Below are positions 2,997 to 55,274 of a stretch of DNA of 64,000 nucleotides, piece after piece. Where the stretch lies: assembly GCA_965215505.1 (NCBI GenBank), contig OZ244065.1:5344001-5408000 (forward strand). Reading direction: 5' to 3'. The DNA is from Capsulimonadaceae bacterium (GTDB taxonomy: Bacteria; Armatimonadota; Armatimonadia; Armatimonadales; Capsulimonadaceae). The stretch's first letter is position 1. Each line of letters begins with the position of its first letter. The notes under the pieces were generated by a model, which searched no databases, was not told the origin of the DNA, and worked only from the letters and a program-made list of their open reading frames with translations. The translations under genes were made by a program, and so were the position numbers.

Positions 2997-3023
2997 GTAT
3001 CGGCATTTCCTCGGTGTTTTGCA
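2997..3023 (-). promoter_or_regulatory. sigma28-like promoter for the ComEC-like/pilB unit (weak -35)
   Basis: GCCGATAC on the minus strand at 2997-3004; shares CCGATACTAGA with the major-pilin promoter. Confidence 0.45.
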
Positions 3024-3127
3024 GGGGCGCGCGCAAGCGCCTCTGCCTCCCGCGCCTATTATAGCATAGCCGCCTTCCGCAGCGCTTTCGGACTTGTGAT
3101 TTTTTTCACGAACAAAGGCCGCACGCG

Positions 3128-3156
3128 TTGATTCGCCCCGACACATACGGTATAAT
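3128..3156 (+). promoter_or_regulatory. sigma70 promoter of the ccm operon, probably leaderless
   Basis: TTGATT-17-TATAAT; ATG lies 7 nt after the -10 with no SD. Confidence 0.6.
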
Positions 3157-3163
3157 AGCCGCA

Positions 3164-3763
3164 ATGAGCGTACTCGATGGCGGACCGCTGGAGCTGCGAG
3201 GAGTCACGATGGCCTACGGGCGGCGCACCCTGTTCTCCGCCGTAGACGCAGACGTGCCGCCGGGCCGGTGTCTGGTCGTCACCGGGGCGAACGGCGCGGG
3301 CAAGAGTACGCTGCTGAAGGTCATCGCGGGCCTGCTGCGGCCCGAAGCAGGCACCGTGACTTTCGGCGGGACGCGCGGCTATGCCGCCCCCGACGTTCAG
3401 CTCTACGGCGAGCTGACCGGCCTGGAAAACTTGGCCTTCTTCGCCCGCCTGCGCGGTGTTCCGGACGGGCCGAATGAATCGCTTCTGGCGGAGGTCGGGC
3501 TGGCGCGCGGGCGGGGCCGCGACCTGGTTTCGGCCTACTCTTCGGGGATGCGCCAGCGGCTGAAGCTCGCCGTCTCGCGCGTCGGCGGCCCGCCGCTCCT
3601 GCTCTGGGACGAACCGACCGCCACCCTGGATGGCGCGGGGAAGGCCCGGGCCGACGACATCCTGGCCCGCCACCGCGCCGGCGGCGGCCTGGCCGTGGTC
3701 GCCACCAACGACCCCGCTGAGGCCGAGCGGTGGGGCGATCTGCGGCTGACGATTGGGGCGTGA
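3164..3763 (+). CDS. ccmA: Heme exporter ABC ATPase CcmA
   Basis: GANGAGKST, YSSGMRQR, LLLWDEP; heads the ccm cluster. Confidence 0.85.
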   Translation: MSVLDGGPLELRGVTMAYGRRTLFSAVDADVPPGRCLVVTGANGAGKSTLLKVIAGLLRPEAGTVTFGGTRGYAAPDVQLYGELTGLENLAFFARLRGVPDGPNESLLAEVGLARGRGRDLVSAYSSGMRQRLKLAVSRVGGPPLLLWDEPTATLDGAGKARADDILARHRAGGGLAVVATNDPAEAERWGDLRLTIGA

Positions 3764-4454
3764 GTCTCGTATCACTGAACACTGGATAACCTGCGCCTGG
3801 ACCGTCTTCCGCAAGGACCTCCAGGTCGAGCTGCGGACGCGCTACGCCGTGGGGGCCGTCCTGCTGTTCGCGGTCACGACCCTGATCGCCGTCTCCGCCG
3901 CCCTCAGTGCGACACTGGTTCACTCCGAAGTCAAGGCCGCCCTGCTCTGGATCGTGCTGCTCTTCGCCGCCCTGTCGGGTCTGGCCCGCGTCTTCGTGCG
4001 CGAGGAGGAGGCCGGGACCGCGCCGCTCCTGCGGCTCTCCGCCCCGGCGACCGCCGTTTACGCCGGCAAGTGGCTGTTCAACATCGCGCTCGTTTTCGCC
4101 GTAGAGGTAGTCAGCGTCCCGCTTTTTTTGATCGTCCTGCCGCTTGCCACTGTGAACTATGGCCTGCTCTTCGGTGTTCTAGTCTTGGGCGGCGTCGGCC
4201 TGGCCGGTGCCTCGACTTTCGTGGCCGCCCTGATCGCGCAGACATCATCCGGCAAGAGCGCCTTGTTTTTCATCGTGGCCTTCCCAGTCCTACTGCCCCT
4301 GCTTTTGATTGCCGTGCAGGGGACCGTCGGCGCGTTCAGCCCGCTCGCCGTTTATCAGGCCCGCGCCCACTCCGATTTAGGACTGCTTACCACCTACGGT
4401 GTGGTGATGACGACGGCCTCATTTCTGCTCTTCGGGTACATCTGGCATGACTAG
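3753..4454 (+). CDS. ccmB: Heme exporter permease CcmB
   Basis: Multi-TM protein; FRKDLQVELRT, FVREEEAGT, FPVLLPLL. Confidence 0.85.
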   Translation: MGRESRITEHWITCAWTVFRKDLQVELRTRYAVGAVLLFAVTTLIAVSAALSATLVHSEVKAALLWIVLLFAALSGLARVFVREEEAGTAPLLRLSAPATAVYAGKWLFNIALVFAVEVVSVPLFLIVLPLATVNYGLLFGVLVLGGVGLAGASTFVAALIAQTSSGKSALFFIVAFPVLLPLLLIAVQGTVGAFSPLAVYQARAHSDLGLLTTYGVVMTTASFLLFGYIWHD

Positions 4455-5166
4455 CACTGTTCAACAATTGGGCAAAATCGGTATTCTGTTCCTCGTTTGC
4501 GTCGCAACAGTCGCGGGTTTTCTGTGGCTGCTGCCCGCAGAGGGGTTCCCCAACCCGGCCCTGGCCCGTATCGTCGTCTTCCATGTTCCCTGCTCGATCG
4601 TCGGTTCCCTGGTGACGGCCGCTGGTGTCTGGTTTGCCGTCCGCTATCTGCGGACGCGCCGCTTGGCTGACGATGCAAGGTCCTCCGTCGCGTTTGCTCT
4701 TGCGACGCTGCTCTGGTCGCTGACGACCGTGACGGGAGCGCTGTTCGCCAAGGCGGAGTGGGGGACATACTGGAATTGGGACCCGAAGCAGACTTGTATC
4801 CTGATGCTGCTGATGATCTATGTGGCCTACTTCGTCCTGCGTGCCGCTCTGGATGATGTCCGCAAGAGGGCTGCGGTCAGCGCAGCCTACACGCTGTTTG
4901 CCCTGGCCGCTGTCCCCCTGCTGACTCTGGTATGGCCCAACTCGGTCCCCGACACGCAGACGCTGCACCCACGCAATGTTTCCTTCAGCCTGGAGTACCG
5001 GCTTGTCCTGTGGGCGTTCACGCTCGGCCTGACTTTGATCTGCCTTTGGGCCTTTCGCCTGCACGTCGCGCTGGAGCTTATGCGACTGCGGTTGGACTCA
5101 CGCGCACGCGGCATTTCGCGAAGACGAACTCCGACCGCGCCCGTCGTCGTGAAGGCGCGGCCCTAA
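4447..5166 (+). CDS. ccmC: Heme exporter CcmC
   Basis: FHVP and WWD motif WGTYWNWDPK; C-terminal LHP. Confidence 0.9.
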   Translation: MTSTVQQLGKIGILFLVCVATVAGFLWLLPAEGFPNPALARIVVFHVPCSIVGSLVTAAGVWFAVRYLRTRRLADDARSSVAFALATLLWSLTTVTGALFAKAEWGTYWNWDPKQTCILMLLMIYVAYFVLRAALDDVRKRAAVSAAYTLFALAAVPLLTLVWPNSVPDTQTLHPRNVSFSLEYRLVLWAFTLGLTLICLWAFRLHVALELMRLRLDSRARGISRRRTPTAPVVVKARP

Positions 5167-5167
5167 G

Positions 5168-5311
5168 ATGCAGAGCCTCGTGCCGCTCATGCTGGTTCCC
5201 CTGCTGATCTTTGTCGGCTTCTGGGCGTACCTGTGGAACCTGGACGGCAAGGTCCGCCGTCTCAAAGACGAGATGAGCCGCCTGGACGGCCCGGACGGCG
5301 AAGAAGAGTAA
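5168..5311 (+). CDS. ccmD: CcmD-like small membrane protein (47 aa, not in the ORF track)
   Basis: MQSLVPLMLVPLLIFVGFWAYLWNLDGKVRRLKDEMSRLDGPDGEEE; one TM plus charged tail, between ccmC and ccmE. Confidence 0.75.
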   Translation: MQSLVPLMLVPLLIFVGFWAYLWNLDGKVRRLKDEMSRLDGPDGEEE

Positions 5312-5314
5312 ACC

Positions 5315-5722
5315 ATGAAGAACAAAGGGGCCGTCATCGGCCTGGTCATCATCGTCGCCGCGCTGGCTTTCAGCGGACTGGCCTTTAAGAACAACCTCGT
5401 TAATGCTGTCCCGTTCGCCGATGCCGTCAAGGCGACCGACTCGGACGTGCAGATCATGGGTGCCCCCGTCAAAGGCACGATGAGCTATCATGACACCGCC
5501 CACGCCCTGCGCTTCGACCTGAAAGACACCTCGGGCGCGGTCATGCACGTCGTCTACCAGGGGCCGAAGCCGGAGGACCTGGACTCGGCAATGAGCAAGG
5601 CCGTCGCCATCAACGCCCAGGGGACTTATGACGCCAAGCAGCACGCCTTCGTCGCCGACAACCTGCTGGTGAAGTGCCCCTCCAAGTATCAGGGGACGAC
5701 CGACCGCAGCTACGGGAAGTAG
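5315..5722 (+). CDS. ccmE: Heme chaperone CcmE, CxxxY variant
   Basis: N-terminal TM; C-terminal KCPSKY. Confidence 0.9.
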   Translation: MKNKGAVIGLVIIVAALAFSGLAFKNNLVNAVPFADAVKATDSDVQIMGAPVKGTMSYHDTAHALRFDLKDTSGAVMHVVYQGPKPEDLDSAMSKAVAINAQGTYDAKQHAFVADNLLVKCPSKYQGTTDRSYGK

Positions 5723-5733
5723 TGGAAACCACC

Positions 5734-8313: not shown

Positions 8314-8319
8314 CCGTCC

Positions 8320-8667
8320 ATGCGACTCCGCCAGCTACTCAAAAGCAAGATACACCGCGCCACCGTGACTGAGGCCGATGTCAACTACGTCGGCTCCATC
8401 ACGGTCGACCAGGACCTTCTGGAGCGCGTGGACCTGTGGCCTGGTGAGCTGGTCCACGTCTGGAACGTCACCAACGGCGAGCGGTTTGAAACCTATGCGC
8501 TGGCCGGGGAACCAGGCGGCGGCATGGTCCGCATCAACGGCGCGGGCGCGCACAAGGCCCATCCCGGCGACATCCTCATCATCGCCGCCTTCGCGCTCAC
8601 CGACGAAACCGTCACGCCCAAAGTCATCCTGGTGGACGAACGCAACCACTATTTACGAGACCTTTAG
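8320..8667 (+). CDS. panD: Aspartate 1-decarboxylase
   Basis: KSKIHRATVT, YVG/SITVD self-cleavage site, NGERFETY. Confidence 0.95.
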   Translation: MRLRQLLKSKIHRATVTEADVNYVGSITVDQDLLERVDLWPGELVHVWNVTNGERFETYALAGEPGGGMVRINGAGAHKAHPGDILIIAAFALTDETVTPKVILVDERNHYLRDL

Positions 8668-8676
8668 AAGCCTATT

Positions 8677-9045
8677 ATGTTTGAAGTCCGCGTTGAGAAG
8701 ACCATCGCCTGTGCCCACCGCCTGTTCGACTACAACGGCCCCTGCGAGAGCCTGCACGGCCACAACTATCGCATCGAGGTCGCCTATGCTGGCACCGAGT
8801 TGGACCGCTTCGGGATGCTGGTGGACTTCACCGACATCAAAAAGGCTTTTAATGCCGTCCTTGACACGCTCGACCATACCTACCTCAACGAACTCCCCGT
8901 CTTCCGCGACCTATCGCCCTCGGCGGAGAACATCGCGCGGCACATCTTCCAGGAGCTGAAGCGCACTCCCTTCGACCGCGCCACCCTCGACCGCGTTTCC
9001 GTCTGGGAGACGCCGACGCAGGTGGCGGTTTATCGGGAAAGGTGA
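8677..9045 (+). CDS. queD: 6-carboxytetrahydropterin synthase
   Basis: AHRL, CESLHGHNY, DHTYLN, PSAENIA, VWET. Confidence 0.9.
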   Translation: MFEVRVEKTIACAHRLFDYNGPCESLHGHNYRIEVAYAGTELDRFGMLVDFTDIKKAFNAVLDTLDHTYLNELPVFRDLSPSAENIARHIFQELKRTPFDRATLDRVSVWETPTQVAVYRER

Positions 9046-9053
9046 TTTTTCTG

Positions 9054-9253
9054 TTGAAGGTCAAGGAAGTCATCAAAAGGAAATCATCAAGCGGCTGGAG
9101 GCCGAGCAGTGGGTGTTCGCACGGCAAAAGGCGAGCCACCGGACGTTCAAAAAGACCGGCGTTGCCGCAGTCATCACCGTCTCTGGCATTGACAGCAAAG
9201 GCGTTTCGCCGGGGCAGTTGCAAGACATCAAGCGAAAGGCAGGCTGGGAATGA
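9054..9253 (+). pseudogene. hicA: HicA-family toxin frameshifted by a 14-bp tandem duplication
   Basis: One frame gives (M)KVKEVIK; the shifted frame gives KEIIKRLEAEQWVFARQKASHRTFKK...GQLQDIKRKAGWE*; duplication at 9063-9090. Confidence 0.75.
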
Positions 9254-9543
9254 CGACAGTTCTGACAGAAGCGCCAGCGCCAGATATGGATGCCCCCGAA
9301 GGAATCAAAGATCCCTTTACCCGGCTCCTTGACCTGACTCTCGGCTGGGGCGAGTATGTGGAGAAGGACGAGGCGGGACACCGCGACAGCGTCTCCTCCG
9401 CCGACATCTACCGCGCTTACCAGTCCATCGCCGAGTTTGCCGAGCCGTACTGCGATGCCGCGCCGGAAGTGCAGGAGATGGCCGCTCGGCATTTCGTGGA
9501 CACGCGCCTCCTGCCGTTGCTGCTGGGCAAGGCCAAGCCCTGA
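9250..9543 (+). CDS. Hypothetical acidic protein, putative antitoxin partner of hicA
   Basis: ATGA overlap with the hicA stop; 97 aa, acidic. Confidence 0.6.
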   Translation: MTTVLTEAPAPDMDAPEGIKDPFTRLLDLTLGWGEYVEKDEAGHRDSVSSADIYRAYQSIAEFAEPYCDAAPEVQEMAARHFVDTRLLPLLLGKAKP

Positions 9544-9560
9544 TCTTGTCTCCCGTGTCC

Positions 9561-13531: not shown

Positions 13532-13536
13532 GTGAT

Positions 13537-14466: not shown

Positions 14467-14736
14467 ATGCACGAACTACAGGCGATGGACCTCGCCCGCC
14501 GCTCCATCCTGATCGCCCTGCAATTATCCCTGCCGATCCTCGTCCTGTCCCTGGTCGTCGGCGTCATCGTCAGCCTCTTCCAGGCCGTGACGCAGATCCA
14601 GGAGCAGACCCTGACGTTCGTGCCCAAGATCATCGTCCTCGTGCTGGCCCTCGTCGTGCTGGGGCCGTGGATGCTCCACACCATCGTCGGGTTCACGTCC
14701 GGGCTGCTGACGAGCCTGCCGGCGACGATGCGGTAG
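14467..14736 (+). CDS. fliQ: Flagellar export protein FliQ
   Basis: SLFQAVTQIQEQTLTFVPK, GPWM. Confidence 0.95.
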   Translation: MHELQAMDLARRSILIALQLSLPILVLSLVVGVIVSLFQAVTQIQEQTLTFVPKIIVLVLALVVLGPWMLHTIVGFTSGLLTSLPATMR

Positions 14737-14749
14737 GCGGCAACCCCCG

Positions 14750-15535
14750 ATGTTCGACCTCGCCGCCTTCTCCGCCGACTCCTTCTGGGCCTTCTTGCAG
14801 GTCTTCGTGCGCGTCTCCTCCCTGTTCGTCACCGCGCCCGTCTTCGGCAGCCGCGAGATACCCTCTCAGGTCAAGGTCGGCCTGGCGACCCTGCTCTCCC
14901 TCGTCCTGCTGCCCTTGGTCAAGGCGACGCTGACCCAGACCGTGCCCGCTTCCGTCTTCGGCATGGCCGCCGTCCTGCTGGGGCAGGCCCTGATCGGCCT
15001 GATGATCGGTCTGGTCGTGTCCCTGACCTTCGTCGCCGTCCGCGTCGGGGGCGACCTGATTGACTACCAGATGGGCTTCACACAGGCGGCGACGTTCAAC
15101 CCGCAGTTCAACGAAACCGTCTCGCCCATCGCCTCGTTCCAGTACCGCTACGCCATCGTTCTGTACCTCCTCGCCAACGGTCACTGGCTGCTGCTGGCCG
15201 CCCTGGAGCGGTCGTTCGTCTCCCTGCCCGTCGCGCAGCTCTCGGTCCCGAGGCTGGCGGGCACCTTCACCGACCTGACCTTCGGGATGCTGGTCGCCGG
15301 CCTACAGATCGCCGCCCCGGCGGGGGCCGTGCTGCTGGTGACGGACATCGCGTTCGCCTTCCTGAACCGGGCGATGCCCTCCATGCAGGTCTTCTACGTC
15401 GGGATGCCGGTTAAGGTCCTGGTCGGCTTCGTCGTGGTCATCGCCGTCATCCCGCTGCTGACCTCGGTGACTTCGGGGCTGGTCCTCGGCTCGCCGCACC
15501 AGGTCGCCGTCCTGCTGCGGGGGATGCACAGGTAA
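14750..15535 (+). CDS. fliR: Flagellar export protein FliR
   Basis: APVFGSREIP, GDLIDYQMGF, NRAMPSMQVF. Confidence 0.93.
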   Translation: MFDLAAFSADSFWAFLQVFVRVSSLFVTAPVFGSREIPSQVKVGLATLLSLVLLPLVKATLTQTVPASVFGMAAVLLGQALIGLMIGLVVSLTFVAVRVGGDLIDYQMGFTQAATFNPQFNETVSPIASFQYRYAIVLYLLANGHWLLLAALERSFVSLPVAQLSVPRLAGTFTDLTFGMLVAGLQIAAPAGAVLLVTDIAFAFLNRAMPSMQVFYVGMPVKVLVGFVVVIAVIPLLTSVTSGLVLGSPHQVAVLLRGMHR

Positions 15536-15538
15536 TCC

Positions 15539-16612
15539 ATGGCCGAAGGCGAAGAAAAATCGTTCCCCGCCACGCCCAAGCGGCGGGAGGAGGCGCGCAA
15601 GAAAGGGCAGGTCGCCCGCTCCTCGGAGTTCGGCGCGGCCCTGACTCTGCTGGCCGTCGTGCTGACGCTCCACGCCCTGCTGCCCGGCGAGGGCGGCCTG
15701 AGCCTGCTGCGCGACCTGCAATCCACCTTCCAGTTCAGCCCCCACGACTCCGCCTTCACCTTCACGACCGTGCATCAGTGGCACACACGCGCATTGGGCT
15801 GGGAGGCGAAGATCGTCCTGCCCGTCCTGCTCCTGGCCGTCGCCCTGGGCCTGGTCTCGGGCGTCGGCCAGGTGGGGTTCGCCGTCACGCCCGAAGCGCT
15901 GGCCCCGCAGTGGAACCGGGTCAATCCCGCCACCGGCCTGAAGCGGCTGCTCTCGACGCGCGGCTCGGTCGAGGCGCTCAAGGGCCTGCTCAAGATGGGG
16001 CTGGTCGGCGGCGTCTGCTACAACACCCTGCGCGGCGGGATCGAGTCGGGCGAGCTGCTCCGCACCATGGGCGAGCCGCTGACCGAGGTAGTCTCGGTCG
16101 TGGGCGGCCTGATCTGGACCCTGGGCCTGCGCGTGAGCGTCATCCTGATGATCCTCGCCGTCGCGGACTATGCCTACCAGAAGTACGAGTTCGAGAAGTC
16201 GCTGAAGATGAGCCTCACCGAGATCAAGCAGGAGGCCAAGCAGTCCGACGGCGACCCGCAGATCAAGGCCAAAATCCGGCGGCTCCAGCGCGAGATGGCC
16301 AAACGGCGTATGATGCAGGACGTGCCCAAGGCCGACGTCGTCGTCACCAACCCCACCCACTACGCCGTCGCCCTGACCTATGACGGGGGAGGGTCCGCCC
16401 CCAAAGTGGTCGCTAAAGGCCGGGACGAGGTCGCCGCCCGCATCCGCGAGATCGCCCGCGAGAACAAGGTCCCACTGGTGGAAAACAAGCCCCTCGCCCG
16501 CACCCTCTACAGCACGGTCGAGATCGGCCGCGAAATCCCCGCCGACCTCTTTGAGGCAGTCGCTCAAGTGCTGGCCTTCGTCTACCGCACCTACGGCCGC
16601 CGGAAGCGTTAG
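15539..16612 (+). CDS. flhB: Flagellar export switch protein FlhB
   Basis: ATPKRREEARKKGQVARS, DGDPQIK, NPTH autocleavage motif. Confidence 0.95.
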   Translation: MAEGEEKSFPATPKRREEARKKGQVARSSEFGAALTLLAVVLTLHALLPGEGGLSLLRDLQSTFQFSPHDSAFTFTTVHQWHTRALGWEAKIVLPVLLLAVALGLVSGVGQVGFAVTPEALAPQWNRVNPATGLKRLLSTRGSVEALKGLLKMGLVGGVCYNTLRGGIESGELLRTMGEPLTEVVSVVGGLIWTLGLRVSVILMILAVADYAYQKYEFEKSLKMSLTEIKQEAKQSDGDPQIKAKIRRLQREMAKRRMMQDVPKADVVVTNPTHYAVALTYDGGGSAPKVVAKGRDEVAARIREIARENKVPLVENKPLARTLYSTVEIGREIPADLFEAVAQVLAFVYRTYGRRKR

Positions 16613-38695: not shown

Positions 38696-39130
38696 TTAGA
38701 GCGCGTCGTTCTGGAAGAACTCGATGACCTCGCCGTCCGGCCCTTTGACGAAGGCTAGGCGCACCGGCACCGGGTATTCGCCTGCGATGGTTACGTCCTT
38801 CGGCTCGATCTGCGAGATTGCCCCCGCCGCCATGGCGCGGGCATAAGCACCGTCAACGTCCGCTGTCCGCAGGGCGAAATGCAGCAGCGCACCCTCGGGG
38901 GCTTCTTCGCCCGCCGCCCGCTTGCCCCCGGCGAAGACCTCCAAATAGTTGCCGTCGCCGGTGTCCAGCATCGCCGCCCGGCTGTCGCCTTCGCCCCAGC
39001 CGAAGGTGCGGACGAAGCCCAGGCCCTCCTGATAGAAGCGCAGGGTCGCCTCGAAATCGGACGCCCGCAGGGCGATGTGGTGGAAGCCGGGCGCGTTCTT
39101 AGGCTTTCCGGGGATATGATTATCTGACAT
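38696..39130 (-). CDS. VOC/glyoxalase family protein
   Basis: FHHIALR, LEVF, HFAL, GPDGEVIEF. Confidence 0.88.
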   Translation of the reverse strand: MSDNHIPGKPKNAPGFHHIALRASDFEATLRFYQEGLGFVRTFGWGEGDSRAAMLDTGDGNYLEVFAGGKRAAGEEAPEGALLHFALRTADVDGAYARAMAAGAISQIEPKDVTIAGEYPVPVRLAFVKGPDGEVIEFFQNDAL

Positions 39131-39200
39131 GTCTAGTCTCCTCCAGTCGTGGTTTGGCCGATTGTACCCGAGGCAGCGCTGTTCCTGTCTTCTCCCACCG

Positions 39201-39941
39201 GTGCGCGGCTCCTTGCGATACAAAGCCACTCGTGTTAACTCCAGCGCTTTTACGCTCCTCGAACTCCTCGTCATCCTAGGCGTCATCGCCGCCCTTGCCG
39301 CAGTCCTGCTGCCGGTCTTCTTTGCTTCGCGGGAGCGGGCGCGGCGGACGTCTTGCCTCTCGAACCTCCGTCAACTCGATACCGCGCTGTTCATGTACAC
39401 CCAGGATAATGACGGGTTCTTTCCAGTGGCCCCGGCGGATGGGGACGGGGACGGCCCCAACTGGATGGAGGCGGTCCATCCGCTTGTCAGCAGCCACGAC
39501 ATTTTCCGCTGCACTGACTGTCCTATTCCTGACCCCGTCGGCGGGCCGGATCTGACCGATGCTGGGTACGCCCTGAACTACGAGCTTTATGATGCCCGCC
39601 GATCCCCGGATGCTGGGCCGGGCACTCCGGCCTCCGACTTGATGGTATCCTTTCCAGCGGCGACGGTTTCCCTGTGTGAAGTCGGCTATCGCACGGGGCC
39701 GAGGAAAGACGACACGAGTTACAGCACGGCGACTAACGCGCCGGATACTGCCGACGACCTAAACTCCGGTGTGACCACTTTCGGCCCGCCAGGGGCGTTG
39801 CGTCATAATGGTGGAAGCAACTACGGCTTTGTGGATGGGCACGTCCGGTGGTATCGTCCCGACCAGGTAGCTGCTGCTAAAGTAACCATGAATGGGGTAC
39901 TCGTGGGAAACAACGGCTCCGCGCCGACGTTCGCCCGGTGA
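39201..39941 (+). CDS. DUF1559-type prepilin-cleavage / H-X9-DG protein (start uncertain)
   Basis: AFTLLELLV, SCLSNLRQ, HNGGSNYGFVDGH. Confidence 0.85.
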   Translation: MRGSLRYKATRVNSSAFTLLELLVILGVIAALAAVLLPVFFASRERARRTSCLSNLRQLDTALFMYTQDNDGFFPVAPADGDGDGPNWMEAVHPLVSSHDIFRCTDCPIPDPVGGPDLTDAGYALNYELYDARRSPDAGPGTPASDLMVSFPAATVSLCEVGYRTGPRKDDTSYSTATNAPDTADDLNSGVTTFGPPGALRHNGGSNYGFVDGHVRWYRPDQVAAAKVTMNGVLVGNNGSAPTFAR

Positions 39942-45256: not shown

Positions 45257-45265
45257 GCTGGCTGA

Positions 45266-45299
45266 GAGCGCGGACGGGTTAGCTAATCCGTCCGCGCTC
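45266..45299 (+). other. Strong intergenic stem-loop (mRNA stabiliser or partial terminator)
   Basis: GAGCGCGGACGG...CCGTCCGCGCTC with no U-tail. Confidence 0.55.
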
Positions 45300-45369
45300 C
45301 CTAGACCGCGCCGTGCCACATACGGCGATTAACGAACTCCCTCATCACGAAAAGGATCACAAGCGACCA

Positions 45370-46221: not shown

Positions 46222-46362
46222 GCGAACCCGCACACGAACCCTCGCTTCTGACGGGGCAGGCGACTACAGACTATCGTAGCCGCCTGCTCCTATATGTGCG
46301 GTAGCCGACTGACAGTGCGCCTACCTAAAGCTGGAAACCTGTCAGCCAAAAGGAGACTTGCC

Positions 46363-47244
46363 ATGCCCCTGAACCATAGCCGACAAAAGCGCGGTTTTAC
46401 CCTGATCGAGCTGCTCGTCGTCATCGCTATCATCGCGATTCTCGCCGCCATCCTGTTCCCCGTCTTCCAAAAAGTCCGCGAGAACGCCCGCCGCACCCAG
46501 GGCCTGTCCAACGCGAAGCAGCTCGGCCTGGGTATCATCCAGTACGTTCAAGACACCGACGAGAAGCTGCCCCTGGCCGGACACACGGAGAGCGAAAGCA
46601 ACCCAAACTGCGAACTGGCGGAATGGCAGAACGCCATCTATCCATTCGTTAAAAGCGACGCCGTCTATAAGGACCCCGATGACACGGTGCCCGCAGGGGG
46701 TGCCAACCAGTCACAGACTGACATCGGGCAAGGACTCGGGAAGATCAGCGCTTCCAGCTTCATCATGGGCTACTATGAGACGAACGCCCCCAGCGTTGGC
46801 GGCATCCGCTCATCTCATGGCTTGAATGACTTCACCGCGCCGGCACAGTTCATCCTGTTGCGGGAGGGTGCGCGGGGCGTCTTCGGCGGCGCGTCGCGCG
46901 GGACCAATGTCCCTGACCACAATGGCAACCTGAGCACGAGCTGGCTGGCCACATATGCCGAATCAGTGCCGAACGACGCGGAGGTCCTGACCAATCCTTG
47001 CAACATCGGCGTTTACAGTGCGGCTGGGGTTCCGTTTCACAAGGATGGGGAGATCATGCTTTTCCTGGACGGCCATGTGAAGTTCTACCCGATGAACCCT
47101 CAAGGTCCCGTCGGCTACTTGAACGGCAACCTGCCCGCCTGCAAGTACACGCTGCCCAACGCAGACGATCCTTCATGCAGCCTGACTACGCCGCCCGCGG
47201 ATGGTTCTGTCAGCGTCTGGCAGGACGTAGACTGTGGACGGTAA
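46363..47244 (+). CDS. DUF1559-type prepilin-cleavage / H-X9-DG protein
   Basis: [48 protein letters not shown]. Confidence 0.9.
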
Positions 47245-47302
47245 GATAGATTGGGCAGTAAGCGAAGCCGCCTACTGCCCTGTTGCTTTTCGAGCAAGAG
47301 AA

Positions 47303-48331: not shown

Positions 48332-48384
48332 GCGCGGCGTCTTGAGTCTTCCTCGTCGGCTGCTTGGAAAGCAGTCCTCTCTCC

Positions 48385-48750: not shown

Positions 48751-48789
48751 GTCCCGCGCCCCAGGCTCCGCACCCTGCACCTTCCCAGG

Positions 48790-50541
48790 CTACGGCAGCG
48801 GCGTCACCGTCCGCTGCCAGGAGATGACGTCGTAGTGGTTGCCGGTCGTGGGGAAGAACGGCGGCGGGTGGTCCGCCAGGCGGTTGTCGTAGTGATACTG
48901 CTCGTTGTAGCCGTCGGCGATGGAGCCGTCGCCGTTGGCGACCGCGAAGTAGCCGGCGTCTCGTGTGATGACCCCGCCGATGGACGTCATGTTGCCTTTC
49001 GGGCCGCCCGTGGCGTAGCTGGGGTAGTCGAAGGTCGTGGTGGCAAAGATGCTGCCGTCGAACTCGATGTTGGAAGGGGCGTTCGGCCCGACCTGGACGT
49101 GATGCCCCAGGATGCCCAGGGTGCCCGCCTTCTGGTTGAAATTGGTATCTTGAGACTGCTGTACGTTGAGGTTCCGGGCCGTGTTGTACTTGACGGAGTC
49201 GGTAAGGGTGACGTCCTTGCTGTTGGAGAGGTCGGTGGCGATCGTCATCTGCGAGCGGCGCAGGATGTTGCCGCTGCCGTCGGTGACGTTGTCGGCCAGT
49301 GTGCCGCTGAGTGACGTGATGTTGCCGTCCGAGTAGACCATGCCGTTCGGAACCCCGGTTAGGGTCTGCGTGGTCGTGATGGGATGCCCCTGGCCGTCTA
49401 CCCCAGGCGTGCTGATCGTGGTCTGGTTCGTGTTCAGGTTGATGGTGACGGTCTGCGTGACGGTCCCCTGGGTCACCAGGATCTGCTGGTTACCGCCGCC
49501 GTCCAGTTGCAGCGTCATGCTGCTGTCGCCGTGAATAGAGATGCCGCCGGTGATCCTCCCGTTGTTCTGGTTGAAGCCCGACGTCGTGTTGATGCTGACG
49601 CCCGCCGTCGTGGGCGCGTTCGGGTCCGACGAGGAGGCATTATTGGGGACTATGTCGCCCAAGGCGGCATACTGCTGCTGGTAGCTCGTGGTCGGCAGCG
49701 GGATGGCCGGCGAATTGGGGATTTTGTTGCCGTTACTGTCCAGGATGTAGTTGCCGCTGGCGTCCTTCTGGAAGCCCGTCGTCATGGTGGCCGCACCGCC
49801 CGCCGCGACGCTGCTATAGTCCGAAGCGCTCGAAGGTGCGCCGACGACCCCGATGGTGTTTTTCCACCAGGTCACGTCGTCGGAGACCGAGAACGCATCC
49901 GAGCCGGTGTAGGTAAAGATGGGGGCGTCCGTCGGGTTGCGCCACAGGAACGTACTCTGGCCCGTATTGCCGTTGACTCCGTCGTTGAAGTGGACCGGCC
50001 CCTCGAAGTGGTTGTTGTAGTCCCAGAAGCCGCCGCCGTCATTGACCGCGAAGTAGGCGTACTTGCCGAAGCTGGTCTGCTGGACATACGTCCGCAGCGT
50101 CTGCGTCGCGCCGCTGGGCATGGTGGCGGTGGCCTCGATCAGATAGTGCTTCTGCACCGACTGCGTGTTGGTGTTGTCCGCATCTATGGTGACTTTGAGC
50201 GTCGCCCCGGCCTCAGAGGGCAGGTCGAACGGGTCGGCGATCGTCCCCGTCGTCCCGAAGAAGGTGCCCCCACTGAAGCTGAGGGCGGAGGGGTCCGGCG
50301 GCGCAGGCTGCTGGGCCAGCCACGCCCGGCCCAGGTCCAGGCCCGAGTCGGCCATGTTGAACGCCTCGGTCATGTCCGTGCGTTTCTGCGCCGACGCGAT
50401 GGTGGTGCCGACCAGGCTCATCAGGCCCGCCGCCGTGATGGTGAGCGCGAAGAGCAGTATCACCGTCGTGATCAGGGCGATGCCGCGCCGGGCGCGCGCC
50501 CGGCGGGCATACCGGTCCGTACAGGTTGGAATAGGGCGCAT
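48790..50541 (-). CDS. PilX-like minor pilin with large C-terminal domain (DUF4900-like)
   Basis: RRG/IALITT lacking E5, AFNMADSG, FEGPVHFN, YHYDNRL...PPPFFP. Confidence 0.8.
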   Translation of the reverse strand: MRPIPTCTDRYARRARARRGIALITTVILLFALTITAAGLMSLVGTTIASAQKRTDMTEAFNMADSGLDLGRAWLAQQPAPPDPSALSFSGGTFFGTTGTIADPFDLPSEAGATLKVTIDADNTNTQSVQKHYLIEATATMPSGATQTLRTYVQQTSFGKYAYFAVNDGGGFWDYNNHFEGPVHFNDGVNGNTGQSTFLWRNPTDAPIFTYTGSDAFSVSDDVTWWKNTIGVVGAPSSASDYSSVAAGGAATMTTGFQKDASGNYILDSNGNKIPNSPAIPLPTTSYQQQYAALGDIVPNNASSSDPNAPTTAGVSINTTSGFNQNNGRITGGISIHGDSSMTLQLDGGGNQQILVTQGTVTQTVTINLNTNQTTISTPGVDGQGHPITTTQTLTGVPNGMVYSDGNITSLSGTLADNVTDGSGNILRRSQMTIATDLSNSKDVTLTDSVKYNTARNLNVQQSQDTNFNQKAGTLGILGHHVQVGPNAPSNIEFDGSIFATTTFDYPSYATGGPKGNMTSIGGVITRDAGYFAVANGDGSIADGYNEQYHYDNRLADHPPPFFPTTGNHYDVISWQRTVTPLP

Positions 50542-50545
50542 GGTG

Positions 50546-51370
50546 TTAGCCTCCAAAATAGAACCGCTTGCCATTCGCCCCGCCTGCGGCGGCCGGCGTC
50601 GGGCTATGGTCCCGCAAATAGACGCAGTCACCGGTCAGGGCGGTCGCGCCCCCGGTGGCCGAGTCGGACGAGGTCGTGCCGTGGACCGGGTCGTACTGGC
50701 CGCTGATGATCTTGATCTCCGCCTCGTTCGCGATCGGCGTGACTCCGTCCGCCTGCATCGGGACGATGAACTGCACCGCATCCGCCGTCGGCGCGATCGT
50801 CTTGATGACCGGGCCGGGCGTGATGGCCGCGCCGTTCTCCGTCCCCGTCACCCACAGGCAGTTGCCCGCCGTCGGATCGGGCGTGCCGTTCGCCCCGTTC
50901 GACTGATTCCAGTCGGCGCGGTAGAAGCTGACCGTCGCCGTACTCGGACTGCCGATCTTGTAGGGCACGTTGGCCCCGGTCAGAGGGCCTTTGCTGACGT
51001 TCGCGCCGGTCGTGTAATAGATGCTCCCGTTGGTGGAGAGCGGGGAGATGTACGGCGTGGGGCTGGTGATCGTGATGCCGGTGACGACCGTGTGGCCGTT
51101 CTTGTCCACGGCGTCATGCGTGGCGTCGTCGAGCAGCGTGAAGTGATCGGCCTCGCGCATGTCCGCCGTGATTCGCTGCACCGCGTTGGAGGCGTCGGCG
51201 GACGAGAGGGACGCGCCGACCACACTTCCGGTCAGGCGGAGCATCAGGATGAACACGCCGACCGCGCCGCCCAGCAGCAGGGTCAGAATGCCCAGGCTTA
51301 ACATCAGTTCGGGCAGGGTGTTGCCGCGCCGCGCGCGGCGTCTTCGGGTTCGGTCGTGCATGGGCGGCAT
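50546..51370 (-). CDS. PilW-like minor pilin
   Basis: RRG/NTLPELM plus hydrophobic helix; ITADMREA. Confidence 0.75.
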   Translation of the reverse strand: MPPMHDRTRRRRARRGNTLPELMLSLGILTLLLGGAVGVFILMLRLTGSVVGASLSSADASNAVQRITADMREADHFTLLDDATHDAVDKNGHTVVTGITITSPTPYISPLSTNGSIYYTTGANVSKGPLTGANVPYKIGSPSTATVSFYRADWNQSNGANGTPDPTAGNCLWVTGTENGAAITPGPVIKTIAPTADAVQFIVPMQADGVTPIANEAEIKIISGQYDPVHGTTSSDSATGGATALTGDCVYLRDHSPTPAAAGGANGKRFYFGG

Positions 51371-51423
51371 CCTTTTCCGGGAGGCGAAGTAAAGGCCGGG
51401 AGTGAGAATTCAGAGGCTAAAGG

Positions 51424-52011
51424 TCATACGGGGGCCATCGCCGTGTGCGTCGTGAGCGTCCCGTTCCCCTGGTTCGGCCCGGCCCAGGTGATCGTGACGG
51501 TGACGCTTTTCAGCAGTGTGGCGGGCACGGAGACGTTCGTGCCGTTGTTGGGGGTCGTCAGGTCGTGATAATCCCCGACCGAAAGGACGCCCGTACTGCC
51601 CGCCGGGAAGAAGCCGGGGTAGGCGATGCCGCCCTTGGTGTTGTCCACCAGGTTGTCGGTCAGGGTGAACGGGTAGGAGACCGTGCCGGCGGGCAGGCCC
51701 GCCGGATTGGGGACGACGATGGCCGTCCCGTTGTTGGTATCAATCACGCCCTGTCCCGCCAGCGTCGCCGCGTCCAGCTTGGCCGCCCCGAGGTTCCGGA
51801 GCTGGTCTATCTTGTGCTGCGCCAGGAAAGACGCTTCGGCATAACTGCCGCCGACATGGCTGGCGCGGTTGGCCACCGGGAAGACCGCGCCGAGCAGAAC
51901 GAGGATCATTCCGAAGACGAACATCGCGATCGCAAGCTCCACCAGCGTGAAGCCCGCGCGGCGGGGTGAGGAGCGGCGGAAGGGACGGCGCATGGCGTAC
52001 TGGGTGGGCAT
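51424..52011 (-). CDS. PilV-like minor pilin
   Basis: AG/FTLVELAI, LAQHKIDQLR, KSVTVTITW. Confidence 0.8.
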   Translation of the reverse strand: MPTQYAMRRPFRRSSPRRAGFTLVELAIAMFVFGMILVLLGAVFPVANRASHVGGSYAEASFLAQHKIDQLRNLGAAKLDAATLAGQGVIDTNNGTAIVVPNPAGLPAGTVSYPFTLTDNLVDNTKGGIAYPGFFPAGSTGVLSVGDYHDLTTPNNGTNVSVPATLLKSVTVTITWAGPNQGNGTLTTHTAMAPV

Positions 52012-52021
52012 GATAGTGTCA

Positions 52022-52047
52022 TTGTCGGCGGGGGCGGGCGGCTTTTA
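52022..52047 (-). promoter_or_regulatory. sigma28-like promoter for the pilV/W/X-like genes
   Basis: TAAA-N14-GCCGACAA. Confidence 0.55.
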
Positions 52048-52069
52048 TAGGGCCTGGTTCCCCGCAGGG

Positions 52070-52540
52070 CTAATACCCGTGGAACCACTTGCCCCCGGTT
52101 TGGTAGTCCGCCCCCCCCGGAGGGCCGGTGGCGACGCTGCACGTCGGGGCGGCGGTGACGCCTCCCAGTGTGTAGACGCCGCCGGAGGGGCAGACCGGGG
52201 CGGACCGGATGTAGTTCTGGCTGCCGCCCGCCTGGGTCAGTTGGTACATCCCGTCCGGCCCGGCGACCGTCGGCGTGACCCCGTCCACGCTGAACGCCGC
52301 CGCCGAGGAGGCGGCCAGCTTGTTGTCCATGGCGCACTGGGTCTTGGCACTGTTGATCTGGTATAGGTTGGCGACACAGGCTCTGGCGCGGGACGACTCG
52401 CGGGCGCTGACTAAGTACGGGACCGAGATCGCCAGCAGAATGCCGATGAGCAGGACGACCACCATGATCTCGACCAGTGTGAAGCCGTGCCGCCGCTCCT
52501 GACGGGGCTTTGTTTGAACAGACCTTGTCTGGTGTGTCAT
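52070..52540 (-). CDS. Type IV pilin paralogue 2
   Basis: HG/FTLVEIMVVVLLIG; ACVANL, PVCPSGG, PTCSV, KWFHG. Confidence 0.88.
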   Translation of the reverse strand: MTHQTRSVQTKPRQERRHGFTLVEIMVVVLLIGILLAISVPYLVSARESSRARACVANLYQINSAKTQCAMDNKLAASSAAAFSVDGVTPTVAGPDGMYQLTQAGGSQNYIRSAPVCPSGGVYTLGGVTAAPTCSVATGPPGGADYQTGGKWFHGY

Positions 52541-54552
52541 CGGAAATCCTTTTCTGCCGCCGGCGCACCGGGGACGCCCGACCCGTTGCGCGCGGATAAA
52601 GCGTGCGCCCCCCGGTGTCCGGCCTGCGCGCAGCGCTGGAGGCCCTGCGTCGCCGCATCGCAGGTGAATAGCGATAACACGTCAGTGTAGGACGCCGCCG
52701 CGACATCATAATCGCCGCCGTCATATGCCAGGTTTGCCCGCACCAGGGCACCGTTGCCGTAGTTGAGCGCCAGCAGCGCCAGATACCGGTCGCGCTGCAA
52801 ATCGCCGCCGAAGACGCCGCGCAGCGAGTAGGAGCGCCAGAGCCGCTCCGTCTCGGCGCGCAGGGTCGGCGCGGCAGGCTTGTGACCCTGCGGGAAGACC
52901 CGCGTGACCAGGCCGACGGTGGCCGTCGCGTAGTGACGGTCCAGATAGACGTCCATCCGTATCCGGTCGCCGCCATCGTCGTGGAACAACGGCGAGTTAT
53001 ACAGGATGGGCGTGCCGGCGGGGGACAGGACGCAGACGGGGACCCGGCGGGCGACGGCGTCCCGGATCACGCGGCGCAGTGGATCTTCCGCCAGCGCCTG
53101 CATCGCCTCGATGCCCTGGGGGGGATACAGCCTGGTCATGGGCGGATAGCGCCGCTTCAGGTCGTGGAGATACCAGGCGTTCGCGAAGGCCTGGTAGCGC
53201 GGGTCATAGATGACGCTCAACATGCCGCGCCGGATCAGGGTGACATCGGGGCGCCGCCCTTCCACCAGTTGAAGATAGATCACCCCGAAGGCGGCCGTGT
53301 CGTCGCCGCTCTCGATCAGCAGGCCGTGCGGTGGGACGGAGGCCAGCAGGTTGCGGGCGTAGTCATAGCAGGTCCAGTTTCCGCGGAGGCTGACGGCACC
53401 GTGCGCCGCGGCCTGAATGGGGACGAGTGCCAGAGTACACAGCGCCCCGAACGCCGCATAGGCGGGGCGCTTGGCGGGTTCCACGCGCGGCTCCAACACT
53501 TGCCACAGCCCGAGCAGGCAGCGCGCGGCGCAGAGGCTCATCGCGACATAACACGGGATGAAGTAGATGTAGGCGTTGTAGATGCTGTAGTTGATGGCGA
53601 AGACCACGTCGGCGAAGACGATCCAGGTCAGCAGCAGTGCAAGGGGGCGCTCGGCACGCCCTCTCCAAAGCAGCCCCAGCCCCAATACACATAGGGCGAC
53701 CAGCGGCCAAGGGAATTGCAGCGGCATGTTCTCGACCCACGACAGGAAATGCTGCTTGATCCAGGATGGCGGATCATGGAACATCCCCGCCGAGAAAATG
53801 CGGCCCGACACATGGTAGTAAAAGGCGAAAGGCGTCTCGGTGTCGCCCCAATTGTAGGCCGGGTGCGTCCGGGCGCGCAGCGGCAGGTACAAATAGGTCA
53901 GCAGCGGTAAGGCGCCCAGCCCCAGCGTCTTCGCCCATTCTTTGCGGACCTCCGGGCCTTTCCACCGCCTCAGCGCCGGCGCGGACCACAGCACGAAGGC
54001 GATGAAGCCCGGCAGGAAGAGTGTGTTGGTCTGGTGCGAGGTCAGCGTGAACCCGTAGGCCACCGCCAGCAGCCGTAGGTCGGCGGGGCGGCAGCCCCGC
54101 GCCCGCCAGCGCGTCGCGAGGAACAGGAGGAGGCAGGTGAAAAACGCCGCCAGCGTATAGGTCTCGGTGATCAGACACTGCTGCCAGAAAGTGGAACTGA
54201 AAGCCAGCAGCCCGCCCGCCGTCAAGGCGAGGGGCCGGGGCAGCCCGGTCGCGCGGGCACACCCGTAGAGACAGGCGACTGCGAGCGATCCAAGGACGGC
54301 GCTCAGGACGTTCAAGCGCCAGACGAGGCTGCCCACCGGCAGCAGCAGCGTCCACGCCTTGCCCAGCAGGCAGTAAAGCGGGTAGCCGGTCGGGTGGGGG
54401 ACCCCCAGTGTCACGGCCACCGTAGCCAGCTCGCCGCAGTCGCCCCAGTACAGGGTCGGGCAGAGAGTCCACAGGTAAACGCTAAACACGGCGGCGGCCA
54501 GGGCGAGCGCCAGCAGGGTGTCCATGTGTCGTCGGAGCAAAGGATGGTTCAT
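52537..54552 (-). CDS. DUF2723 GT-C membrane glycosyltransferase (protein O-mannosyltransferase-like)
   Basis: WGDCGEL, LGVPHPTGYPLY, ETY, NWG, GDD; multiple TM segments. Confidence 0.85.
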   Translation of the reverse strand: MNHPLLRRHMDTLLALALAAAVFSVYLWTLCPTLYWGDCGELATVAVTLGVPHPTGYPLYCLLGKAWTLLLPVGSLVWRLNVLSAVLGSLAVACLYGCARATGLPRPLALTAGGLLAFSSTFWQQCLITETYTLAAFFTCLLLFLATRWRARGCRPADLRLLAVAYGFTLTSHQTNTLFLPGFIAFVLWSAPALRRWKGPEVRKEWAKTLGLGALPLLTYLYLPLRARTHPAYNWGDTETPFAFYYHVSGRIFSAGMFHDPPSWIKQHFLSWVENMPLQFPWPLVALCVLGLGLLWRGRAERPLALLLTWIVFADVVFAINYSIYNAYIYFIPCYVAMSLCAARCLLGLWQVLEPRVEPAKRPAYAAFGALCTLALVPIQAAAHGAVSLRGNWTCYDYARNLLASVPPHGLLIESGDDTAAFGVIYLQLVEGRRPDVTLIRRGMLSVIYDPRYQAFANAWYLHDLKRRYPPMTRLYPPQGIEAMQALAEDPLRRVIRDAVARRVPVCVLSPAGTPILYNSPLFHDDGGDRIRMDVYLDRHYATATVGLVTRVFPQGHKPAAPTLRAETERLWRSYSLRGVFGGDLQRDRYLALLALNYGNGALVRANLAYDGGDYDVAAASYTDVLSLFTCDAATQGLQRCAQAGHRGAHALSARNGSGVPGAPAAEKDFR

Positions 54553-54594
54553 ACGGCCTCGCGCTTGCACGGCAATAATGCCGGGATGCCGTTA

Positions 54595-54621
54595 TTATCG
54601 GCAAAAGGCGGCGAGACTTGA
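54595..54621 (-). promoter_or_regulatory. sigma28-like promoter for DUF2723 and pilin 2
   Basis: TCAA-N15-GCCGATAA, just downstream of the major-pilin terminator. Confidence 0.7.
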
Positions 54622-54634
54622 GGGCGGGCGCGGC

Positions 54635-54663
54635 AAAAAGCGGGGGCGCGTCTGCGCCCCCGC
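54635..54663 (-). terminator. Intrinsic terminator of the major pilin gene
   Basis: GCGGGGGCGC-agac-GCGCCCCCGC-TTTTT on the minus strand. Confidence 0.8.
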
Positions 54664-54707
54664 TGGAAGGATAGTTCGGACTCAGGCCGTCCTGAGAGGT
54701 CTCCTGC

Positions 54708-55139
54708 CTAGTTCGTCAGGCCGTGGAACCACTTGGCACCCGACTCATAGCCGCTGCCCGCAGTGCCGGTGACCGAGCAGGTCGGGAGCGCGGAGACGAG
54801 GCCGGGGGTGTAGGTGCCGGCGGACGGGCAGACCGGGGTCGCGCGGACATAGCCGCCCGCCCCGACCAGCTGGAAGAGAGTTGCGGTGCTGGCGGTCGTG
54901 CCGTCAATGCTGAAGGTGGCGGTGGATGTGCCGGAGAGCTTGTTGTCCATGGCCGACTGCTGCTTCGCACTGTCGATCTGCTTGAGGTTGCCGACGCAGG
55001 ATTTGGCGCGGGCCGATTCACGGGCGGCGACGAAGTTAGGGATCGCGATCGCCAGCAGGATGCCGATGATCAGGACGACGATCATGATTTCGACCAGCGT
55101 AAAGCCGGCCTTCTGATTCTTCGGGCGGAAAAACTTCAT
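54708..55139 (-). CDS. Probable major type IV pilin
   Basis: KAG/FTLVEIMIVVLIIG; SD AGGAG; own promoter and terminator. Confidence 0.88.
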   Translation of the reverse strand: MKFFRPKNQKAGFTLVEIMIVVLIIGILLAIAIPNFVAARESARAKSCVGNLKQIDSAKQQSAMDNKLSGTSTATFSIDGTTASTATLFQLVGAGGYVRATPVCPSAGTYTPGLVSALPTCSVTGTAGSGYESGAKWFHGLTN

Positions 55140-55246
55140 ACGAAACTCCTTTTTCGGAAACGAGCGATGTTGATTCGGACTGTTGATTTGGAGTGCGGCC
55201 CCGCGCCTGCTTGGTGTTGCGGGTGCCTCCTCGGGTGACAGTTCTA

Positions 55247-55274
55247 GTATCGGGGCGTCCGGTGCGCCTCTTTA
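55247..55274 (-). promoter_or_regulatory. sigma28-like promoter for the major pilin
   Basis: TAAA-N16-CCCGATAC. Confidence 0.6.

Follow-up and report, generated by a model that had tools for sequence, protein, structure and literature searches.

Sigma-28-type promoter motifs before dispersed type IV pilus genes of a Capsulimonadaceae bacterium and their probable place in a FliA regulon

Two groups of type IV pilus genes lie 52 kb apart in the genome of a Capsulimonadaceae bacterium (GenBank assembly GCA_965215505.1, contig OZ244065.1), and the question raised by this locus is whether one sigma factor reads the promoters of both and so makes them one system. The stretch analyzed, hereafter the window, has 64,000 nucleotides (contig positions 5,344,001 to 5,408,000). 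A first-pass annotation of the window had noticed sigma-28 (FliA/WhiG)-like motifs on the minus strand before all four of its type IV pilus transcription units, and had proposed a pilus regulon, possibly for competence, run by a sigma factor of the FliA family. The motif was surveyed in the window, in the whole genome and in relatives. As far as the sequence tells, the four motifs are probably working promoters which are read by RNA polymerase with the single FliA/WhiG-type sigma-28 factor of this genome; that FliA is the reader, and at what time it acts, we infer.

All four motifs were found where they had been placed when the minus strand was read directly (Table 1). The classical sigma-28 consensus is given as TAAA-N15-GCCGATAA (PMC8325347). 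The four sites agree with a -35 of TAAA(GTTT) and a -10 of GCCGATAA about 15 nt apart, with spacers of 14-16 nt. The 12 consensus letters have one mismatch in the site before the DUF2723 gene, one in the minor-pilin site and two in the major-pilin site, and the site before the metallo-beta-lactamase-fold (MBL) gene and pilB has one mismatch in its -10, with a CAAA block 13 nt upstream. The score of the DUF2723 promoter, whose -10 context is GCCGATAAT, is the fourth best in the genome. The minor-pilin promoter reads cccTATAAAAG and then GCCGACAAT, and a leaderless or near-leaderless mRNA is expected from it because the ATG (52011) is only 10 nt past the -10; the ATG of the MBL gene is 62 nt downstream of GCCGATAC.

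The pilin site and the MBL-pilB site (then called ComEC-like) do share CCGATACTAGA, as had been noticed; the 6.18-Mb genome has exactly two copies of this 11-mer, one at each of the two sites, and base composition gives an estimated chance expectation of about one. The TAGA after the -10 of both sites recurs as TAGAG at fliC, flgM, fliK and pilT, and seems to be a favoured extension of the -10 on its downstream side, not an operator in its own right. The -35 of the MBL-pilB site had been described as weak; it is instead the conserved variant CCCTGCAAAA, which is also present at the promoter of the flgF/G rod gene, and the CCCCTGCAAAA block of the MBL-pilB promoter is likewise found upstream of that gene. 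The layout of the pilin promoter (CCCTAAAG, 12 nt, CCCGATAC) is repeated before a GGDEF gene.

The genome is one contig of 6,177,771 bases with 66.5% G+C. By a plain consensus search (TAAA, 14-16 nt and GCCGATAA, with the CGA core required and no more than 2 mismatches) 294 sites were obtained; at 1 mismatch or less, 8 of 29 were in called promoter positions and several more at over-extended starts of open reading frames (ORFs). A position weight matrix was then made from 14 sites of flagellar, chemotaxis and cyclic di-GMP (c-di-GMP) genes, with zero pilus sites in the training set, and beyond the search word it contains a C-rich part before TAAA, a G after TAAA and a T right after the -10. 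An attempt to refine the matrix iteratively on all upstream regions ended in a generic A-rich pattern, and the fixed matrix was used instead.

With this matrix, matches of at least 18 bits were found at 65 of 12.36 million positions and at 5 positions of the reversed, uncomplemented genome; at 20 bits or more the numbers were 39 and 0. On both strands of the window only the four pilus sites reach 14 bits, and the next two matches have 12.9 and 13.0 bits. Called promoter positions, which are about 6% of all positions, hold 36 of the 65 sites. The gene caller was home-made (GC3/codon score, longest ORF); it missed the MBL gene among others and over-extended starts, and the 'genic' and 'inter' classes were rechecked by hand. 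Seven of the 16 'genic' sites are 46-197 nt inside same-strand ORFs, the starts of which are probably called too long.

The hallmark targets of sigma-28 carry the motif in this genome: fliL (32.2 bits), a flgB-like gene (25.9), flgF/G (25.8), cheY-cheX (25.9), fliD (22.9), flgM (22.9), genes of methyl-accepting chemotaxis proteins (MCPs; 21.8 and 21.0) and fliC (20.8). Pfam matches of the genes downstream of the consensus sites were FliL, FlgB-like, FlgF/G, FliD, FliK-like, MCP, PilZ, HDOD and many GGDEF/HD-GYP. The training set accounts for 13 of the 65 sites, and the other 52 were classified. Nine of these 52 are before pilus genes, which include the four sites of the window and five units outside it, namely a pilC (25.6 bits), a 146-aa pilin (21.9), two PilB-like ATPases (20.7 and 18.4) and a second pilC (18.9). 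Three are flagellar (flagellin 20.8, FlgM 22.9, FliK-like 23.4 bits), two belong to chemotaxis (cheY-cheX 25.9, PAS-MCP 21.8 bits), four to c-di-GMP genes, one to rpoN (20.3 bits) and two to DUF7925 proteins; the remainder are before nine other genes, at 13 places with no family or no clear gene, deep within genes (two) or antisense (seven). A site of a PilT-like ATPase is just below the threshold (printed as 18.0 bits), and pilM of a pilMNOPQ cluster has 15.3 bits. Altogether at least nine pilus transcription units, which lie at seven places of the genome and include both distant loci of the window, have the motif.

A site of at least 16 bits lies within 3 kb upstream of three of the seven full-length PilB/GspE-type genes and of two of the seven T2SSF matches, and no site of 13 bits or more was found at three clusters like those of type II secretion, type IV pili or Tad (near 2.11, 2.94 and 4.84 Mb). 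Among the 72 matches to the prepilin family N_methyl, three genes, all of short pilins, have a site of at least 15 bits within 400 nt, and with a limit of 18 bits within 400 nt upstream the number is likewise three. We place three further N_methyl genes in operons behind a site; 66 of the 72 are not accounted for by any site, and none of the DUF1559-type genes of about 300 aa, which make up most of the 72, has one. As sites are present at few pil and N_methyl genes and at none of the three clusters, the motif sets one dispersed pilus system apart. It can be used for sorting the prepilin-like and PilB/PilC paralogues, with nine units in, and 66 of 72 prepilin-like genes and the three clustered secretion-like systems out.

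Exactly one FliA/WhiG gene is over the TIGR02479 cut-off (241 bits against 189.6), and FliA is a single match in most of the relatives (38 of 41 genomes). The Atlas cluster nearest to this FliA is most frequent in Armatimonadota, a hint at the phylum and no more. The other sigma factors of groups 1 to 3 are three RpoD-like proteins, two of SigB/F/G type and one SigB/F/G-like protein encoded directly after pilC, which is named sigma-GGDEF here after a putative fused GGDEF-like domain. FlgM, flagellin (two matches) and FlhA are present in the genome, and FliQ, FliR and FlhB are in the window. The housekeeping promoter consensus is canonical, as over-represented upstream words were CTTGACA and GGTATAAT (TTGACA/TATAAT).

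Conservation of the sites was analyzed in orthologous loci. DUF2723 orthologues with 55-74% identity were present at 11 loci of relatives, and the promoter before this gene is kept at all 11, 25-89 nt upstream and with 18 bits or more at 10 of them. The pilin promoter is kept at nine of the 11 loci, about 700-1200 nt upstream of the DUF2723 orthologue and with 16.1-24.3 bits. When ten pilin upstream regions were aligned, the blocks CCCTA..GA and CCGATA were invariant and the sequence of the 16-nt spacer was free; in several relatives the pilin -10 ends in GATAAC, without the final T needed by a sigma-70 -10. The MBL promoter is kept at 25 of 25 loci, of which the present genome has one, a species of a second genus another, and 23 species of the genus the rest; it lies 21-65 nt upstream of the gene with 15.2-24.0 bits, and PilB is downstream of MBL at all 25. 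The -10 of these loci is [GA]CC[GA]A[TC]A[ACT], with GCCGA[TC]A[ACT] at 23 of the 25, ACCGACAA at one and GCCAATAA at one. Since a conserved CCCTGCAAAA or CCCTCTAAAT block is kept at every locus, the MBL-pilB -35 is a conserved variant and not merely a weak one.

The 5' untranslated region (UTR) of the pilin gene also has conserved parts. A TGTCACCGG box is found just past the -10 (55225-55239 of the window, minus strand) at the orthologous loci L096-L104 and L114, and the blocks CGCAnCnACA and AGCGCGG are kept across the genus. For these blocks the roles of operator, RNA structure or start region are conceivable.

The identities of the genes behind the motifs were taken from Pfam and NCBIfam profile matches (Table 1). 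For the major pilin, which has a 5' UTR of about 100 nt and AAGGAG before its ATG, NCBIfam gave generic pilin/pseudopilin matches below equivalog cut-offs. The inverted repeat after its stop, which was found by eye and was not listed by the consensus scan, marks the pilin unit off from the promoter which follows. The DUF2723 gene has two possible starts (GTG 54570 or ATG 54551), and its product is a candidate for a pilin glycosylation enzyme; it forms an operon with the second pilin, since the start of the latter overlaps the DUF2723 stop by 4 nt. The assembly ATPase probably starts near residue 50-65 of the ORF. Its TIGR02538 score (602 bits) is under the PilB equivalog cut-off of 675.65 and nearly tied with that of GspE (595.2 bits), while T2SSE and MshEN are well above theirs, so it is labelled a PilB/GspE-type ATPase, and its neighbourhood with pilins suggests the PilB subtype. 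Its residues 79-131 match an MshE-related c-di-GMP-binding motif (NF053729, 68.1 bits, cut-off 38).

The name ComEC-like, which had been given to the MBL gene, does not hold: its TIGR00361 score is 44.8 bits against a cut-off of 190.05, and the match covers only profile positions 431-663, the C-terminal MBL part of ComEC/Rec2. The 298-aa protein was accordingly rejected as a full-length ComEC/Rec2 competence channel with the membrane competence domain, and since it resembles the C-terminal part only, the suggested competence role of the regulon is left without support. Two DUF1559 prepilin-like genes of the window are without a sigma-28-type site in the matrix scan of both strands. Near the flagellar export gate genes of the window no such site of 12 bits or more was found, which is expected for early-class genes.

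Table 1. Coordinates of the promoters and genes discussed. Positions are those of the window, except where a genome coordinate (G000:C1) is given.
Feature	Position	Strand	Sequence or profile match	Matrix score (bits)
Sigma-28-type promoter, major pilin	55247..55274	-	cccTAAAg; TAAA 55274-55271, 16-nt spacer, CCCGATAC 55254-55247, then TAGA	18.1
Sigma-28-type promoter, operon of DUF2723/TMEM260-like gene and second pilin	54595..54621	-	cccTCAAGt; TCAA 54621-54618, 15-nt spacer, GCCGATAA 54602-54595	26.5
Sigma-28-type promoter, minor-pilin operon	52022..52047	-	TAAA 52047-52044, 14-nt spacer, GCCGACAA 52029-52022	20.5
Sigma-28-type promoter, MBL-pilB operon	2997..3026	-	ccccTGCAAAAc, then GCCGATACT and AGAG; -10 GCCGATAC 3004-2997	21.8
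Major pilin, 143 aa, prepilin N-terminal methylation motif	54708..55139 (ATG 55139)	-	Pfam N_methyl 33.9 bits	
GC-rich inverted repeat and TTTTT, 3' of pilin stop	54633..54660	-	GGGGGCGC-AGAC-GCGCCCCC, then GCTTTTT	
TMEM260-like/DUF2723 membrane glycosyltransferase-family protein, 677 aa	52537..54570	-	Pfam PF11028 91 bits	
Second pilin, 156 aa	52070..52540	-	Pfam N_methyl 31.3 bits	
Minor-pilin operon (195-aa and 274-aa prepilin-like proteins, 613-aa protein with PilX_N-like start)	48790..52011	-		
Prepilin-like members of minor-pilin operon	51424-52011, 50546-51370	-	Pfam N_methyl 28.2 and 20.7 bits	
PilX_N-like protein	48790-50631	-	PilX_N 18.3 bits, under its cut-off	
MBL protein, 298 aa, hydrophobic N-terminus	2039..2935 (ATG 2935)	-	Pfam Lactamase_B 28.2 bits	
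PilB-type assembly ATPase (T2SSE and MshEN)	217..2184	-	T2SSE 456 bits, MshEN 59.8 bits	
DUF1559 prepilin-like genes	39129-39941, 46294-47244	+		
fliQ, fliR, flhB (flagellar export gate)	14467-16612	+		
FliA/WhiG sigma, about 82 kb before the window	G000:C1:5262344-5263018		NF005413 FliA subfamily 209 bits, cut-off 201	
pilC and 446-aa SigB/F/G-like sigma (sigma-GGDEF)	G000:C1:2006450-2009108 (L005)		Behind a sigma-28-type site	25.6

Several observations weigh against reading the motifs as FliA promoters. The minor-pilin site, which is looked for 3' of the DUF2723 orthologue and before the next pilin genes, was found at only four of the 11 loci, and the same loci contain six antisense matches of at least 15 bits. 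With seven of its 65 sites antisense within genes and two deep within genes the matrix is not clean, and one site of 20.2 bits (3670720) is plainly a sigma-70 promoter, TTGACT-N17-TATAAT. Among the pilus units, the site of the second pilC is 459 nt ahead of the gene, and the 20.7-bit site of a pilB-like gene (6089834) is directly followed by a terminator-like hairpin. This last site (G000:C1:6089795-6089841, minus strand) lies between a secretin (pilQ-like) gene and the pilB-like gene and is followed by a GC-rich hairpin with a T-run; it is either false or a start which runs into a terminator. The CAAA/TAAA block of the MBL-pilB promoter is 13 nt and not 15 nt from the -10. The pilin site, with 18.1 bits, is the weakest of the four; at this score about one site in 10 should be false by the reversed-genome control, and the -10 of the pilin site, CCCGATAC, deviates from the consensus at two letters. 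From the weakness of this one site it could be argued that only the DUF2723, minor-pilin and MBL-pilB sites are real, and that pilA is driven otherwise, for example by sigma-54, for which the genome has the gene rpoN and on which pilA is reported to depend in several proteobacteria (PMC7170775). We consider this quite unlikely, because the pilin site recurs at nine of the 11 orthologous loci with two invariant blocks around a variable spacer, and because the GGDEF gene mentioned above shares its architecture.

The likeness to TAAA-N15-GCCGATAA would be coincidental if the motifs were sigma-70 -10 elements with a poor -35, or sites of a transcription factor. GATAAT is indeed contained in GCCGATAAT and GATACT in CCGATACT, flgM and fliC carry GCCTATAAT and GCCCATAAT, and the site at 3670720 is an evident sigma-70 promoter. 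Yet a scan of 51900-55400 on both strands found 0 sigma-70-type promoters, no TTGACA-like -35 being present, and the letters which are conserved are the CC before GATA and a TAAA-like block at sigma-28 spacing, whereas the last letter of the -10, which sigma-70 needs, varies among relatives (GATAAC). Genome-wide, the same bipartite motif also goes with genes of flagella, chemotaxis and c-di-GMP, and this explanation is thus very improbable. A different reader of some or all pilus sites is harder to set aside. Another group-3 sigma may take this part, and the candidate is sigma-GGDEF, which is encoded after pilC behind a strong sigma-28-type site, so that a cascade from FliA to this sigma and on to the pilus genes is possible; in cyanobacteria, control of pilA is reported for the group-3 sigma SigF (PMC6495340). 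Sigma-GGDEF scores 159.8 bits with SigBFG and 112 bits with FliA_WhiG, and full-length homologues of it are present in both families of the order, which also counts against FliA as the only reader; since they occur across the order, this phyletic pattern does not discriminate between the two readers. Against it, the pilus sites match the universal sigma-28 consensus and are indistinguishable from the flagellar sites in -35, spacer, -10 and the T after it, and the MBL-pilB and flgF/G promoters have the same CCCCTGCAAAA block. The promoter consensus of SigB/F-type factors differs from that of the pilus sites. A single sigma is also the simpler account, and we regard a second reader as rather unlikely.

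With one FliA, the hallmark targets, nine pilus units and conserved sites, one sigma-28-type regulon probably ties the dispersed pilus genes together. The earlier proposal of a FliA-family sigma which links the two distant loci is supported in so far as there is one such sigma and the motif is present and conserved at both loci; the regulon is not dedicated to pili, however: this flagellated organism has the general sigma-28 regulon for flagella, chemotaxis and c-di-GMP, to which pili are added. In the proposed scheme it would have three parts. These would be the late flagellar and chemotaxis genes (fliC, fliD, flgM, fliL, the rod genes, MCPs and cheY-cheX), a large set of c-di-GMP enzymes and receptors, and a dispersed type IVa pilus system. 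The pilus part would include, in the window, the major pilin, the DUF2723 glycosyltransferase-like protein with the second pilin, the minor pilins and MBL-pilB, and elsewhere pilC with the following sigma-GGDEF fusion gene, another pilin and more pilB-like genes, with pilT and pilMNOPQ as weaker members. FlgM would keep FliA inactive, and release of FliA would give joint transcription of pili, late flagellar parts and c-di-GMP turnover genes. The activity of PilB could be further tuned by c-di-GMP via the MshEN motif, as a second, post-translational link. This gives a concrete regulon map for a poorly studied lineage, in which swimming, attachment or twitching by pili and c-di-GMP signalling are apparently under one sigma factor.

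Control of type IV pili by the sigma-28 family is already known from Rubrobacter, Actinoplanes and Bdellovibrio. For WhiG of Rubrobacter radiotolerans and R. xylanophilus, a consensus with -35 TAAA and -10 GCCGATAA was likewise searched with up to 2 mismatches, several of its promoters are inside pilus gene sets, and the same regulon has many genes of c-di-GMP turnover; three start-site-mapped WhiG promoters are in the pilus cluster and five are before diguanylate cyclase or phosphodiesterase genes (PMC8325347). Rubrobacter is an actinobacterium, whereas the present organism has flagella and a FlgM-type anti-sigma factor, its pilus genes are in at least seven places, and its sites are known from sequence. 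The closest functional parallel is Actinoplanes missouriensis, in whose zoospores flagella and pili are reportedly both driven by WhiG-like sigmas, so that a single cell makes its flagella and its type IV pili under one flagellar-type sigma family (PMC8325347, PMC12871210); it differs in its phylum and in the developmental setting of zoospores. The same wiring is predicted across several actinobacterial families in a 2026 preprint (PMC12871210).

In Bdellovibrio bacteriovorus and B. exovorus FliA activates a Tad/Flp (type IVb) pilus operon together with flagellin, as a heterologous reporter in E. coli lacking fliA showed (PMC5430801). FliA there governs a broad lifestyle regulon, and the type IVa pilA is said not to be regulated by it (PMC5430801). 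Here, in contrast, a type IVa-like pilin, minor pilins, PilB and PilC carry the sites, and the Tad-like cluster near 2.94 Mb is without one, unlike the Tad operon of Bdellovibrio. The class-3 regulons of enterobacterial FliA and Bacillus SigD are alike in promoter architecture, in FlgM and in the targets fliC, flgM, fliD, MCPs and che. To our knowledge, classical sigma-28 regulons do not include structural or assembly genes of type IV pili. Cyanobacterial SigF is alike in being an alternative group-3 sigma needed for expression of the major pilin in organisms which move by type IV pili (PMC6495340). It is unlike the present factor in not being a FliA/WhiG orthologue. The SigF promoter motif differs from GCCGATAA as well. 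For Armatimonadota (Armatimonadetes), a literature search on sigma-28 control of pili surfaced only the Fimbriimonas genome paper, which is no proof that nothing else is published; it reports a single fliA for a fimbriated species which is non-motile and has many pilus genes, and its cited part does not address regulation (PMC4072686). Type IV pili under sigma-28 control have so far been described from Actinomycetota and Bdellovibrio; the present case would add a further phylum and a flagellated cell that has FlgM.

A sister family of the same order (G025-G040, 16 genomes, 88-98% complete) was included in the survey. FliA and FlgM were each found in 14 of these genomes, FlhA in only two and flagellin in three, where not found does not mean absent. 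Five of them with FliA and with no FlhA or flagellin found were scanned over 1.5 kb before 19 PilB-like genes (28.5 kb), which gave nine sense matches against one antisense match of at least 14 bits. A degenerate sigma-28 pattern had 40 matches in one such genome against five for the reversed pattern; 30 of the 40 became loci and only nine of these have 16 bits or more, the better ones being before HD-GYP, GGDEF-EAL and DUF2723-family genes. Upstream of flgM in the sister family, seven of 12 regions have a site of 12.7-18.4 bits, in several cases GCCTATAAT, which is also a perfect sigma-70 -10, and five of the 12 have no site of 11 bits or more. Its DUF2723 paralogues have a site of at least 15 bits directly before the gene at six of 16 loci, all of one genus, and at five loci of MBL homologues no site was found before the gene and one after it (L154).

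These findings hint that the core of the regulon which stays constant in this order is made up of pili and c-di-GMP genes and not of flagella. That the FliA-FlgM pair is here at heart a switch for pili and c-di-GMP and not a flagellar one is a tentative idea, which we find possible but doubtful. If it were true, FlgM would have to be released by something other than flagellar export, for example by the pilus machine or by c-di-GMP, and a classical anti-sigma factor would then have a checkpoint logic that is new. What releases FlgM in genomes where FliA and FlgM are kept and no flagellar genes were found is the question which arises from it.

Some further observations were made on the sites. 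A start codon is within 13 nt (6-12 nt) of the -10 at 12 of the 65 sites, the minor-pilin promoter (52011-52022 of the window) among them, often as GCCGAyAAtgrcggcATG. Leaderless starts were rejected as a feature special to sigma-28 sites, since a crude TATAAT control gave 131 of 523; because of this control, leaderless mRNAs may be common in the organism generally. The 20.3-bit sigma-28-type site of rpoN (G000:C1:4304905, minus strand) is 59 nt upstream of the gene. In Pseudomonas and Vibrio the order is from RpoN to FliA, and a site before rpoN would be the reverse order. Two DUF7925 proteins of about 795 aa, encoded at G000:C1:342015-344396 and 330304-332697 (minus strand), have strong sites with 23.4 and 19.4 bits and are putative regulon members. 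The 12-nt unit CATCGAACTAAT stands in four head-to-tail copies at about 1571590-1571640 of G000:C1 (minus strand), with a flagellar hook-associated-type gene on one side and the second flagellin-family gene on the other.

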